From a virus (Duplodnaviria; Heunggongvirae; Uroviricota; Caudoviricetes), in IMG/VR virus record IMGVR_UViG_2778261706_000026: a DNA stretch of 4,529 nucleotides; one strand, written 5' to 3'. Shown here piece by piece: positions 1,941 through 4,529 of the stretch (its first letter is position 1; each line of letters begins with the position of its first letter). Under the pieces are notes generated by a model, which had not been told where the DNA came from, made no database searches, and was given only the letters and a program-made list of their open reading frames with translations. Position numbers and translations under genes: made by a program.

Positions 1941-2456
1941 GTGATCGCTGAATTAACGGCAGCAATGACGGCTATTCGTGAAACCGCCCAGATTGCAAAA
2001 CTAATGAACGAGGCAAAAACTCAAGCTGAAGTAAATGCGGCTATTGGTGAACTGAACTCAAAGCTTGCATCTATTCAGCGCGAATGCGTGTCTCTCGTTG
2101 AGCTGGTGGGCACTTATCAAGAAATAAATGCTTCTCTCAAAGCTAAAATTGCAGAATTTGAAAACTTTGAGGCTCAGACGGAAGGTTATATCCTTAGCCA
2201 ACTTGAGTCGGGAACTTTTGTGTACTCGAAGGAGGTAACCGTGAACGGCGGCAGCATAATCATGCATCTTTGTCCAAAATGTTTTGGACAAAAGATAGTA
2301 TCGATACTTCAGCCATTCCCGGTTAGAGAATATGAATTTTTTCATAAAAGCAGGTGCCTGTACTGTGAAAATCAGTTTCTTATGAATAAAAATCCGGATT
2401 ACGTATCACCTCCATCTATTGAAGAGTTGGCCAGAAAACTGAACGGCAATCTGTAG
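1941..2456 (+). CDS. Hypothetical protein: predicted N-terminal helical/coiled-coil region plus C-terminal four-cysteine zinc-ribbon-like motif (CPKC-x24-CLYC); cargo of the TIR-bounded cassette
   Basis: Long plus-strand ORF ending TAG at 2454-2456, opposite in orientation to all neighbouring prophage genes. Start is uncertain: GTG 1941 (AAGAG about 8 nt upstream), ATG 1965 or ATG 2004. The ORF-track N-terminal extension from 1788 is R/P-rich, overlaps the exonuclease remnant and the left repeat, and is rejected. The protein has only one Asp and no DDE or HUH motif, so it is unlikely to be a transposase. Confidence 0.6.
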   Translation: MIAELTAAMTAIRETAQIAKLMNEAKTQAEVNAAIGELNSKLASIQRECVSLVELVGTYQEINASLKAKIAEFENFEAQTEGYILSQLESGTFVYSKEVTVNGGSIIMHLCPKCFGQKIVSILQPFPVREYEFFHKSRCLYCENQFLMNKNPDYVSPPSIEELARKLNGNL

Positions 2457-2457
2457 A

Positions 2458-2481
2458 TTTTTACTGTTATGGATATCCAGA
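2458..2481 (-). repeat. Right terminal inverted repeat of cassette
   Basis: GGATATCCAGA at 2471-2481 is the reverse complement of 1906-1916; the imperfect inner extension begins 2 bp after the cargo ORF stop codon (2454-2456). Confidence 0.6.
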
Positions 2482-2570
2482 TTGTTAAAGAGCATGCCGG
2501 ATGCTTGCTTGTGTCCGGCGCGTGTGCACCACTCTCCCCCCGTGGAGGATTCCTTAATTACCAGATTTCA

Positions 2571-2723
2571 TTAGTCAGAGTTTCTTGCTAACCAGCGACG
2601 CGCGCCAGATTCGGTTTTAAACGTTTTGCTTTTGGTATACGTCATCGCGGTGAACGTGCCGTCCTGGTTGGGAAACACGCCGCACACCAGAGATTCGTTG
2701 TTGCCAAGATCAAGAGTATCCAT
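2571..2723 (-). CDS. Small Rac-prophage-type protein (YdaG-like, about 50 aa)
   Basis: Minus-strand ORF ending TAA at 2571-2573. Internal ATG at 2723 has a good SD (GAGG 5 nt upstream). The ORF-track start at 2801 adds 26 residues with weaker SD spacing. It sits immediately downstream of the racR-like gene, as ydaG does in Rac; my recollection of the YdaG sequence is weak. Confidence 0.55.
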   Translation of the reverse strand: MDTLDLGNNESLVCGVFPNQDGTFTAMTYTKSKTFKTESGARRWLARNSD

Positions 2724-2875
2724 GCTGACCTCATATCCCCTTAACGCCGGGGTAGCGGAACAAAAACCTGCTGCATAGTTAAAGTTGAACCCTGCCGTCA
2801 TGTTCTTACGCCTCGGGCTGGCTACTTAATCCCTGACCACTGCCGGGTAACTCTAGGTATTGCCCTGTATTGTGT

Positions 2876-2898
2876 GGGACGGGATGGGTTGGTATGGG
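2876..2898 (+). other. G-quadruplex-type motif GGGacGGGatGGGttggtatGGG on plus strand
   Basis: Four GGG tracts with loops of 2, 2 and 7 nt, read directly. It lies on the template strand just downstream of the predicted leftward promoter. Confidence 0.35.
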
Positions 2899-2901
2899 AA
2901 A

Positions 2902-2930
2902 ACTATAGGAAATGCCTAATTGCTTGTCAA
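2902..2930 (-). promoter_or_regulatory. Near-consensus sigma70 promoter, leftward (PL-like): -35 TTGACA, 17-nt spacer, -10 TATAGT
   Basis: Minus-strand reading TTGACAagcaattaggcatttccTATAGT (rc of 2902-2930). The spacer contains an ATTAGGC operator half-site (plus-strand GCCTAAT at 2914-2920). Oriented toward the ydaG-like gene. Confidence 0.55.
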
Positions 2931-2943
2931 TAGGCTACGCCTA
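2931..2943. promoter_or_regulatory. Operator-like palindrome TAGGC-tac-GCCTA immediately upstream of the PL-like -35
   Basis: Same TAGGC-N3-GCCTA architecture as the three palindromes between the racR-like and ydaS-like genes. A related CCTAaTAGG palindrome lies at 2959-2967. Confidence 0.5.
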
Positions 2944-3002
2944 ATGATTTGGGTGCGACCTAATAGGTGATGGTTTGTGGGAGAGGTAGTAGGAGTTAAC
3001 TA

Positions 3003-3024
3003 ACGGGAACTAGGAATTTCCCGT
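3003..3024 (-). terminator. Weak stem-loop (7-bp stem ACGGGAA/TTCCCGT, 8-nt loop) just downstream of the racR-like stop
   Basis: Inverted repeat read directly; there is no clear U-tract after it on the minus strand, so terminator function is doubtful. Confidence 0.2.
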
Positions 3025-3038
3025 CGGACCATATAAGT

Positions 3039-3515
3039 TTAAGTTCCTGTCTTGGTGATGTTCTGGCTTTTCCGTTTTGATTCTTGATTTTTCAGATAGT
3101 TAGCTACCTTCATTTCCATTGCGGCAATGTAGGCACGAACGTCATGATCAACCCAACTAGGCTCCGTAGCATTTCCAGATAAGAGGAAAGCCACAATTGC
3201 TCTTTTTTCATCAGAGGCGGCTTGATAAAGGCTGTTTATGTCTAAAAGTTCACTTTTTGTATCTGAAGTGGATGGGGTTGGTATGGGGTATTCGTTAAGC
3301 CCCCAATGCTCTGGACCAACCACATCAGAAAAGAAACGCCATAGTTCTGGAAGTTTGTCTTTACTTATCGAACCTTTCTTAATCCAGTCATGGATTGATG
3401 GTGGTTGGACTTTGAAATGACGTGCGATTTCCGCCTTTGATTTGACGGCTCCTGATGCAATTTTTTTGTTAATGGCCTGCTCTATCGCTCGGCCTAAGTC
3501 TTTACCACTAAGCAT
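3039..3515 (-). CDS. racR: HTH-type prophage repressor, RacR-like (158 aa)
   Basis: Complete minus-strand ORF with an N-terminal helix-turn-helix (KAEIARHFKVQPPSIHDWIKKGSI). Divergent from a Cro/YdaS-like gene across an operator-rich intergenic region. Length and context match RacR of the Rac prophage as I recall it. No obvious S24 peptidase/autocleavage domain. SD GGAGA about 9 nt upstream of ATG at 3515. Confidence 0.85.
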   Translation of the reverse strand: MLSGKDLGRAIEQAINKKIASGAVKSKAEIARHFKVQPPSIHDWIKKGSISKDKLPELWRFFSDVVGPEHWGLNEYPIPTPSTSDTKSELLDINSLYQAASDEKRAIVAFLLSGNATEPSWVDHDVRAYIAAMEMKVANYLKNQESKRKSQNITKTGT

Positions 3516-3544
3516 TGCTTAATAGTCTCCTATGCGCATCGCAT

Positions 3545-3557
3545 TAGGCAATGCCTA
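3545..3557. promoter_or_regulatory. Operator palindrome 1: TAGGC-aat-GCCTA
   Basis: Perfect 5-3-5 palindrome read directly; the closest of the three to the racR-like start. Confidence 0.55.
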
Positions 3558-3569
3558 CTCTCGAAGTGT

Positions 3570-3582
3570 TAGGCATAGCCTA
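3570..3582. promoter_or_regulatory. Operator palindrome 2: TAGGC-ata-GCCTA
   Basis: Perfect 5-3-5 palindrome; centre 25 bp from operator 1; abuts the -35 of the rightward promoter. Confidence 0.55.
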
Positions 3583-3612
3583 TTGACAATTGCATTAGGC
3601 TAAGCCTAATAT
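3583..3612 (+). promoter_or_regulatory. Near-consensus sigma70 promoter, rightward (PR-like): -35 TTGACA (3583-3588), 18-nt spacer, -10 TAATAT (3607-3612)
   Basis: Read directly. The predicted transcript start is about 20 nt upstream of the GGAG SD (3628-3631) and the ATG at 3640. The spacer shares the gcaATTAGGC element with the PL-like promoter. Confidence 0.6.
3596..3608. promoter_or_regulatory. Operator palindrome 3: TAGGC-taa-GCCTA (extends to the 17-bp palindrome ATTAGGCtaaGCCTAAT, 3594-3610)
   Basis: Perfect palindrome; centre 26 bp from operator 2; overlaps the spacer and -10 of the rightward promoter. Confidence 0.6.
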
Positions 3613-3639
3613 TATTGTGTGTTTTTTGGAGTTCATTCG

Positions 3640-3779
3640 ATGAAAAAAGATAACTATTCATTCAAACGAGCTTGTGCTGTTGTCGGTGGGCAATCAGCAA
3701 TGGCTAGGCTTTTAGGTGTATCTCCTCCAAGCGTAAATCAATGGATCAAAGGTGTACGTCAGTTGCCTGCTGAGAGATG
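3640..3779 (+). pseudogene. ydaS: Cro/YdaS-like HTH regulator, interrupted after codon 47 by an IS3-family insertion
   Basis: ATG at 3640 with GGAG 8 nt upstream. Translation MKKDNYSFKRACAVVGGQSAMARLLGVSPPSVNQWIKGVRQLPAERC matches my recollection of the N-terminal half of Rac YdaS. From 3780 the frame reads into the IS terminal repeat (EPPRVSWRVFYL) and stops at 3817-3819. Confidence 0.7.

Positions 3780-4529
<750 letters not shown>

Follow-up and report, generated by a model that had tools for sequence, protein, structure and literature searches.

Predicted RacR operators at the early promoters of an Escherichia coli O157:H7 Sp6-type prophage

Which protein reads a set of short palindromes that lie over the divergent promoters of a prophage, and which of those promoters does it control? 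The question is raised by a stretch of viral DNA of 4,529 nucleotides (IMG/VR record IMGVR_UViG_2778261706_000026; Caudoviricetes), whose full length is called the window here. Between a racR-like repressor gene and a divergent ydaS-like gene it carries three TAGGC-N3-GCCTA palindromes (3545-3612), which an initial annotation, made from the letters alone, read as operators overlapping a rightward promoter, with a fourth copy at a leftward promoter. We find that these palindromes are very probably operators of the RacR repressor, controlling the rightward early promoter PydaS (the PR analogue), a leftward early promoter (the PL analogue) and racR itself. The operators and the lambda-like switch to which they belong are already published for the orthologous Rac prophage of E. 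coli K-12, and the initial annotation is in this respect a correct rediscovery.

The K-12 work provides the experimental frame for our analysis. Krishnamurthi et al. (2017) described GCCTAA/TTAGGC repeats and observed three RacR-DNA complexes on the racR-ydaS intergenic region by electrophoretic mobility shift assay (EMSA), one EMSA complex when the fragment (49 bp) had a single repeat, enrichment of RacR in vivo by chromatin immunoprecipitation with quantitative PCR (ChIP-qPCR), and repression by RacR of GFP fused to the ydaS promoter (PMC5700373). Wisniewska et al. (2022) found that RacR DNase I footprints coincide with the repeats, derived the monomer motif ATTAGGC, and defined the operators O1-O3 with the consensus (T/A)TAGGC-N3-GCCTA(T/A); at the lowest RacR concentration it is the ydaST promoter that is protected first (PMC9638921). 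In the same study primer extension gave a single PydaS start, with TTGACA and TAATAT as promoter hexamers, and replacement of the -10 TAATAT by CCCGGG abolished activity. Three weak racR promoters, PracR1-3, were mapped, the strongest being the leaderless PracR3, whose -10 GAGAAT was mapped and mutated. RacR autorepressed racR about 3-fold; YdaS left racR unrepressed, and was an autorepressor. An analogy with lambda was drawn by the authors of the first study, and with lambda CI/Cro by those of the second. A 2025 follow-up credits RacR with 'four operators' in the intergenic region and reports that YdaS and YdaT also bind there, that YdaT has the motif ATGATT-N6-AATCAA and a footprint spanning the -35 and -10 of PydaST, and that it activates a reverse promoter, PracR4, equivalent to PRE (PMC11879457). 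Furthermore, depletion or silencing of RacR in K-12 derepresses ydaG, ydaF, kilR, ydaE, racC, recE, recT, xisR and intR, and in transcriptomes of cells with lowered RacR the first five of these genes rise 40- to >70-fold.

Operators at the rightward and leftward promoters

The window contains exactly four copies of the sequence TAGGCNNNGCCTA, at 2931-2943, 3545-3557, 3570-3582 and 3596-3608, and 200 dinucleotide-preserving shuffles gave no exact operator match (mean 0.00, maximum 0). When one mismatch is allowed, the window holds five operator sites against 0.07 expected by chance. The motif search and the spacing of the three perfect intergenic copies (centres 3551, 3576 and 3602, and consequently 25 and 26 bp apart) agree with what had first been described. 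The copy nearest to racR, TAGGCAATGCCTA (3545-3557), has its centre 36 bp upstream of the ATG of racR and is perfect here, in contrast to K-12 Rac, where this -36 site has one mismatch (GCCTA to CCCTA). The middle copy, TAGGCATAGCCTA (3570-3582), abuts the -35 element of PydaS, and the third, TAGGCTAAGCCTA (3596-3608), fills the PydaS spacer and shares 2 nt with its -10.

Three right operators had been proposed, and the three perfect sites stand, but the right operator region (OR) has four, including a degenerate operator with two mismatches, TAAGCATTGCTTA (3509-3521), that covers both the ATG of racR and its leaderless transcription start. Shuffles yield 1.22 matches at two or fewer mismatches, so that this site taken alone is not significant; its sequence is identical in K-12, where it is called operator 3 (O3) (PMC9638921), and the ATG-overlapping site of distant homologues has one mismatch only. 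The published consensus is matched in the window by the three perfect intergenic sites and by this site over the ATG. The list of half-sites also contains a lone GCCTAA (3492-3497) inside the racR coding sequence.

A sigma-70 consensus promoter scan covering both strands of 2400-3900 returned two sites only, both of them flanked by operators. The rightward one is PydaS (3583-3612, plus strand; TTGACA-18-TAATAT), which matches 10 of 12 consensus positions and has its -35 TTGACA at 3583-3588 and its -10 TAATAT at 3607-3612. These coordinates confirm that the third palindrome overlaps the rightward -10, by 2 nt, and that the second abuts the -35. The window therefore has a near-consensus PydaS, overlapped by an operator and facing the divergent, Cro-like ydaS gene.

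For the repressor gene itself no convincing sigma-70 promoter had been seen initially, which fits the three weak promoters, the strongest of them leaderless, that were mapped in K-12. A relaxed scan of both sequences gave GAGACT/GACTAT in the window and GAGAAT/GAATAT in K-12; from the K-12 mapping, the window variant (3522-3529, minus strand) is the probable -10 of a leaderless racR promoter equivalent to PracR3. The relaxed scan also gave a candidate -35, TTGCCT (3546-3551, minus strand), whose position within operator 3545-3557 would account for autorepression. The -10 of PracR2 in K-12 (AGTAAG) has no counterpart in the corresponding part of the window (3558-3569). A racR promoter that is weak, or activator-dependent like lambda PRM, had been suggested; weakness is in line with K-12, but PRM-like activation by RacR is unsupported, because the K-12 experiments saw RacR autorepression and left racR unrepressed by YdaS, which argues against the self-activation and Cro repression known from PRM; the activation seen in K-12 is that by YdaT, at PracR4.

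The leftward promoter (2930-2902, minus strand; TTGACA-17-TATAGT) matches 11 of 12 consensus positions, with its -35 TTGACA at 2925-2930 and its -10 TATAGT, a hexamer identical in K-12 and in related loci, at 2902-2907. The fourth palindrome does adjoin this promoter, as had been reported, but the left operator (OL) is a pair, of which one member had been missed. OL2, the perfect operator TAGGCTACGCCTA (2931-2943), abuts the leftward -35 (2930..2925). OL1, the promoter-proximal operator TAGGAAATGCCTA (2906-2918, one mismatch), lies 25 bp from OL2 and shares 2 nt with the leftward -10, mirroring the position of site 3596 on the rightward -10. The OL1 position is occupied also in K-12, Mixta, Proteus, Achromobacter and Klebsiella phage KpF5.

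Both early promoters can be written as a common cassette, consisting of an operator, TTGACA, 6-7 nt, and a second operator whose last TA begins the -10. In promoter orientation the PR cassette reads TAGGCATAGCCTA-TTGACA-ATTGCAT-TAGGCTAAGCCTA-ATAT, and the PL cassette reads TAGGCGTAGCCTA-TTGACA-AGCAAT-TAGGCATTTCCTA-TAGT. A gcaATTAGGC spacer element had been noted as shared by the two promoters; it is present in both, but the copies differ (PR GCATTAGGC, PL GCAATTAGGC), and the alignment of the cassettes in promoter orientation identifies the element as the left half of the promoter-proximal operator. We found no description of RacR sites or of a promoter left of racR (upstream of ydaG/ydaF) in those papers on RacR that also mention ydaG, ydaF or kilR, although older subscription literature, EcoCyc or RegulonDB may hold one.

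A candidate third OL site, ACCTAATAGGT (2958-2968), was rejected, as it has the wrong geometry for TAGGC-N3-GCCTA and is not conserved outside Escherichia. The block ACCTAATAGGTGATGG (2958-2973) is identical in the window and K-12, with flanks that have diverged on both sides, and the centre (2963) of the core CCTAATAGG stands 26 bp from the OL2 centre. A further observation concerns the predicted leftward transcript, whose first 45 nt (2852-2896, minus strand) contain 40% C and 11% G and resemble a Rho utilization (rut) site; such a leader may relate to the Rho-dependent silencing of Rac leftward genes, of which the kil gene of K-12, silenced by Rho-dependent termination, is a known case.

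RacR, its relatives and the conservation of the cassette

The repressor gene racR (3039-3515, minus strand) codes for a protein of 158 amino acids (aa) with an N-terminal helix-turn-helix (HTH) and a C-terminal domain other than Peptidase_S24. The protein scores 246.8 bits on NF049929, the RacR equivalog of NCBIfam (cutoff 200), is 92% identical to K-12 RacR over all 158 aa, and is named 'DNA-binding transcriptional repressor RacR' in O157:H7 genomes by the NCBI Prokaryotic Genome Annotation Pipeline (PGAP); judged from its sequence, it is the RacR orthologue. The equivalog match, together with a ydaS gene identical to that of strain Sakai up to position 3780, bears out the earlier designation of a racR-like/ydaS-like divergent region. 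Searches of Pfam (E <= 0.01) and PHROGs placed RacR in no family, and Pfam found no Peptidase_S24 in it, in agreement with the proposal of a repressor without an autocleavage domain. A PDB sequence search with RacR gave nothing meaningful (best E = 0.63).

Repressors with the same kind of N-terminal domain joined to Peptidase_S24 were found in more distant phages. Pseudomonas phages D14H and VW-6S (L018, 2501-3352, and L019, 2501-3361) encode 'CI repressors' of 283-286 aa, whose first ~75 residues are 52-55% identical to RacR and whose C-terminal halves match Peptidase_S24 (PF00717), and both phages retain the ATG-overlapping TAAGCATTGCCTA. A high-GC viral contig (L105) encodes a 218-aa HTH-plus-S24 (PF00717) repressor (2738-3394) whose identity to the RacR HTH is only 30%; the contig also has perfect TAGGC-N3-GCCTA operators in the three-site layout described below as type B, an OL pair and a divergent YdaS-like gene. 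Thus the operator code would follow the N-terminal domain, and the C-terminal domain would be exchangeable; RacR looks like an S24-less member of this group of HTH-plus-S24 repressors.

The distribution of the cassette was surveyed from the protein and from the DNA. The PL cassette recurs in twelve species-level loci found via the protein and in two phage genomes, although its N3 and spacer vary; these come from Escherichia, Mixta, Proteus, Klebsiella phage KpF5, Achromobacter and a metagenome-assembled genome (MAG). PR and PL alike retain the operator cassette across those genera and in two MAGs. Furthermore, the PL cassette stays with its promoter despite genes that intervene between it and the repressor gene, over 1.6-2.3 kb in Achromobacter and 1.9 kb in KpF5. 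In 36 operators the mean majority fraction was 0.97 in the half-site columns against 0.50 in the N3 columns, a contrast that is partly by construction, since the operators had been chosen at two or fewer mismatches.

In the DNA-first scan, IMG/VR viral contigs were searched for TAGGCNNNGCCTATTGACA (operator plus TTGACA), and at least 120 loci were obtained; the counts that follow are those among the matches listed. A RacR-like protein is encoded in 102 of 120 loci, its median distance from the cassette being 73 bp. In the other 18 many matches lie near the end of the locus, where the repressor gene is possibly cut off, and most of these loci have operator pairs 24-26 bp apart. The upstream region is complete in 99 loci, and 97 of these have an OL pair, spaced 24-26 bp. 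Two OR layouts, distinguished by the positions of their sites relative to the repressor ATG, predominate. Type A, which is the layout of the window and of K-12, has sites at -87, -61 and -36 and the degenerate ATG site, and was found in 70 loci of at least 91% identity; in these closely related viral contigs the four OR and two OL sites recur together. Type B has sites at -60, -35 and 0, and comprises about 27 loci of 47-79% identity. From these positions, type A looks like type B with one additional unit of ~26 bp. All related loci that were examined, L105 among them, have a YdaS-like gene along with the motif.

One locus stands apart by its label. A 5.2-kb contig binned as 'Candidatus Nanosynbacter sp.' (L006; JARKOR010000130.1) carries an E. 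coli-type Rac immunity region, with a RacR of 92% identity and the same six operators, and is most likely mis-binned.

Proposed mechanism, known switches and alternatives

In the mechanism that we propose, each 13-bp TAGGC-N3-GCCTA would bind one RacR dimer, with one HTH on each (A/T)TTAGGC half-site. On paired sites RacR would cover the -35 flank, the spacer and the -10, and would in this way shut PydaS and with it the rightward genes, namely the Cro-like ydaS, the CII-like ydaT and the replication genes. Since PL and PydaS share one cassette, RacR would shut both early operons directly, acting at the PL-like promoter through OL1 and OL2 on the DUF1391 gene and, in intact relatives, on kil, recombination genes, xis and int. 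Site 3545-3557, over the candidate -35, and site 3509-3521, over the ATG and the transcription start, would confer negative autoregulation on the weak leaderless racR promoter. Binding would be cooperative between sites 25-26 bp apart, and RacR might bridge OL and OR, which are ~615-690 bp apart here, as lambda CI does. For the window allele, RacR's binding to the palindromes and the repression of PydaS would follow those of the K-12 orthologue.

A wider proposal takes in the bipartite OL on a PydaS-type cassette, the direct shut-off of both operons and the possible OL-OR bridging, together with an operator code and layout tied to a small HTH with interchangeable C-terminal modules (S24 or the non-protease helical domain of RacR), in which RacR would be a CI-like repressor that lost its SOS-cleavable domain. 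We regard this proposal as evenly balanced.

The nearest known system is K-12 Rac, which aligns with the window over its entire immunity region; each of the six sites has its counterpart there at the homologous position, with the same ATTAGGC half-site, and the TTGACA/TAATAT hexamers of PydaS and the TTGACA/TATAGT hexamers of the leftward promoter are identical to those of the window; the racR-ydaS intergenic region is 124 bp long in the window and 123 bp in K-12. As in lambda, the repressor and cro-like genes are divergent, and several palindromic operators lie over both PR and PL; they also overlap the repressor's own promoter, if the racR promoter is assigned from K-12. The Rac-type switch likewise has a leaderless repressor mRNA and a CII analogue (YdaT) that acts on a PRE-like reverse promoter. 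The layout like that of lambda OR1-3/OL, as it was first put forward, matches the K-12 experiments on the orthologous region, but the site counts differ, with three OR and three OL in lambda against four OR (3509, 3545, 3570, 3596) and two OL (2906, 2931) in the window. Other differences from lambda are the operator of 13 bp with a 3-bp centre, the OR site over the repressor start codon, and an operator spacing of 25-26 bp (~2.4 helical turns) in place of 23-24 bp. By Pfam, RacR is no homologue of CI and does not have the Peptidase_S24 domain by which autocleavage would be recognized.

The PaaR2-YdaS-YdaT switch of the cryptic prophage CP-933P (Jurenas et al. 2021; PMC8630535) comes from the same O157:H7 host lineage and has the same gene order of repressor, ydaS and ydaT, four equally spaced OR inverted repeats, a leaderless repressor gene, and a PL-like promoter with operators of its own, whose hexamers in CP-933P are identical to those of PR. 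It differs in having 18-bp palindromes with the consensus half GTTTAGTAA, an octameric repressor (PaaR2), and a toxin-antitoxin pair downstream of the repressor. Its PL933P and OL1-3 were tested by experiment, whereas the RacR papers searched gave no such experiment for the RacR-type PL and OL.

Several points weigh against RacR control of PydaS, PL and racR as set out above. The binding and transcript evidence rests on the K-12 intergenic sites, not on the window allele or on the leftward sites of any strain, and the racR promoter region of the window differs from that of K-12, so that the K-12 map of racR promoters may not transfer exactly. The conservation statistics were partly ascertained on the motif itself. 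Part of the leftward derepression in K-12 could be an indirect effect of YdaS/YdaT or of prophage excision, and RacR is not the only reader of the K-12 intergenic region, since YdaS and YdaT bind it as well.

In one alternative, which we consider unlikely, the leftward pair (2906-2943) and its promoter would be an inactive relic, the leftward genes being controlled indirectly by read-through, by Rho or by YdaS/YdaT. The RacR literature yielded no direct experiment on the leftward promoter, the leftward arm is heavily deleted in the window prophage, and in K-12 it is Rho-dependent termination that silences Rac kil. Against a relic stand the 11 of 12 matching promoter consensus positions and a cassette that is retained in distant genera with variable N3 and spacer and moves with the promoter away from the repressor gene; the OL pair is found in 97 of 99 viral contigs among the matches listed, and the leftward genes of K-12 respond as strongly as noted above when RacR falls.

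Somewhat less probable again is that YdaS, YdaT or both are the chief readers of the palindromes and that RacR binding is incidental. YdaS is an autorepressor in K-12, the YdaT footprint lies over the PydaST -35 and -10 (PMC11879457), and in CP-933P the footprints of PaaR2 and YdaS fall on overlapping sites (PMC8630535); as a YdaS-like gene is found with the motif at every related locus examined, co-occurrence cannot separate YdaS from RacR. Against this reading, in K-12 the RacR footprints match the ATTAGGC repeats and a single complex forms on the 49-bp one-repeat fragment (PMC9638921, PMC5700373), whereas YdaT reads another motif, ATGATT-N6-AATCAA (PMC11879457), and racR is unrepressed by YdaS though the operators cover the racR promoters. 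By analogy with lambda CI and Cro, RacR and YdaS likely share some operators, which is compatible with RacR as the repressor of both early promoters.

Finally, chance or structural repeats (RNA hairpins or terminators) with no protein-binding role can be dismissed almost entirely: a terminator scan flags 3594-3610 (7-bp stem followed by a T-rich tail), a candidate rejected as an artefact of the operator palindrome and located upstream of the expected PydaS start, hence not in that transcript, whereas exact matches occur in 0 of 200 shuffles, no known RNA element accounts for the palindromes since an Rfam scan of the whole window (E <= 1) gave no match, the half-sites are conserved while the N3 loop varies without compensatory pairing being needed, and RacR footprints are published for K-12 (PMC9638921).

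The surrounding prophage and the meaning of the switch

Positions 2450-3780 of the window are 100% identical to Sakai and to many other E. coli O157:H7 genomes, and the Sakai counterpart is annotated 'prophage Sp6; lambda-like phage' and adjoins potC. This identity makes the window the immunity region of a Rac-like lambdoid prophage of the E. coli O157:H7 Sp6 type, adjoining potC (the Sp6 site) and not the K-12 Rac site. It differs from K-12 Rac also in its gene content, with ydaG absent (the K-12 stretch has no counterpart in the window), the region of kilR and recET deleted, and ydaS broken by an insertion sequence (IS) of the IS629/IS1203 type. The heavily deleted leftward arm, from which kilR and recET are gone, retains on the minus strand the genes for an integrase (1-1119) and an excisionase (1088-1366) and the remnant of one for a 3'-5' exonuclease (1419-1856).

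The nearest gene downstream of the leftward promoter is a ydaF-like DUF1391 gene (2571-2801, minus strand; Pfam PF07151, 6.6e-30), for which the PGAP call is shorter (2571-2723 only); it appears as 'DUF1391 family protein' in the annotation of O157:H7 PA20 and aligns with K-12 ydaF. On the plus strand, an open reading frame (ORF) of 171 aa with no assigned function (1941-2456) takes the place that sieB has in K-12. Its product matches phrog_1244 (1e-57) and has no significant match in Pfam; by eye, its N-terminal half is coiled-coil-like and it has two CxxC pairs. PADLOC gave no match for RacR, the DUF1391 protein or the product of this ORF.

The Cro analogue ydaS starts at 3640 and is truncated after codon 47 (3640-3780, plus strand); up to 3780 the sequence is that of Sakai ydaS, and from there on it is unrelated. 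The intact Sakai YdaS matches PF15943 YdaS_toxin (3.8e-30) and P22_Cro. The remainder of the window (3781-4529, minus strand) is the end of an IS3-family element (IS629/IS1203-like; Pfam rve and HTH_21) with an orfB transposase gene (3822-4520), whose matches carry the annotation 'IS3-like element IS1203 family transposase'. This element is not part of the switch and interrupts the rightward operon; as ydaS is cut at 3780, PydaS is disconnected from the ydaS, ydaT and replication genes that follow it in Sakai. The junction creates a 59-aa fusion ORF in which the HTH is kept and the C-terminus of YdaS is lost. Among 5,426 complete E. coli genomes none has the ydaS::IS junction (3600-4000), and in no record was 80% coverage of it reached.

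Taken as a whole the finding adds little. It shows that a reading made from the letters alone can recover a real genetic switch. It also carries the RacR operator map of K-12 over to the O157:H7 Sp6-type prophage, and the identical half-sites suggest that this prophage probably shares the immunity specificity of K-12 Rac. What is apparently undescribed comes down to the OL pair and its PL cassette, and to the relatives that carry S24. The OL pair and PL would give a direct explanation for the derepression of the entire leftward Rac operon (in K-12, kilR, recET, xis and int) upon loss of RacR. Furthermore, the comparative data show two stable OR layouts, with three and with four sites, and the presence of the same operators in relatives whose repressors carry an S24 domain bears on how Rac-type prophages, which have no SOS-cleavable repressor, are induced.

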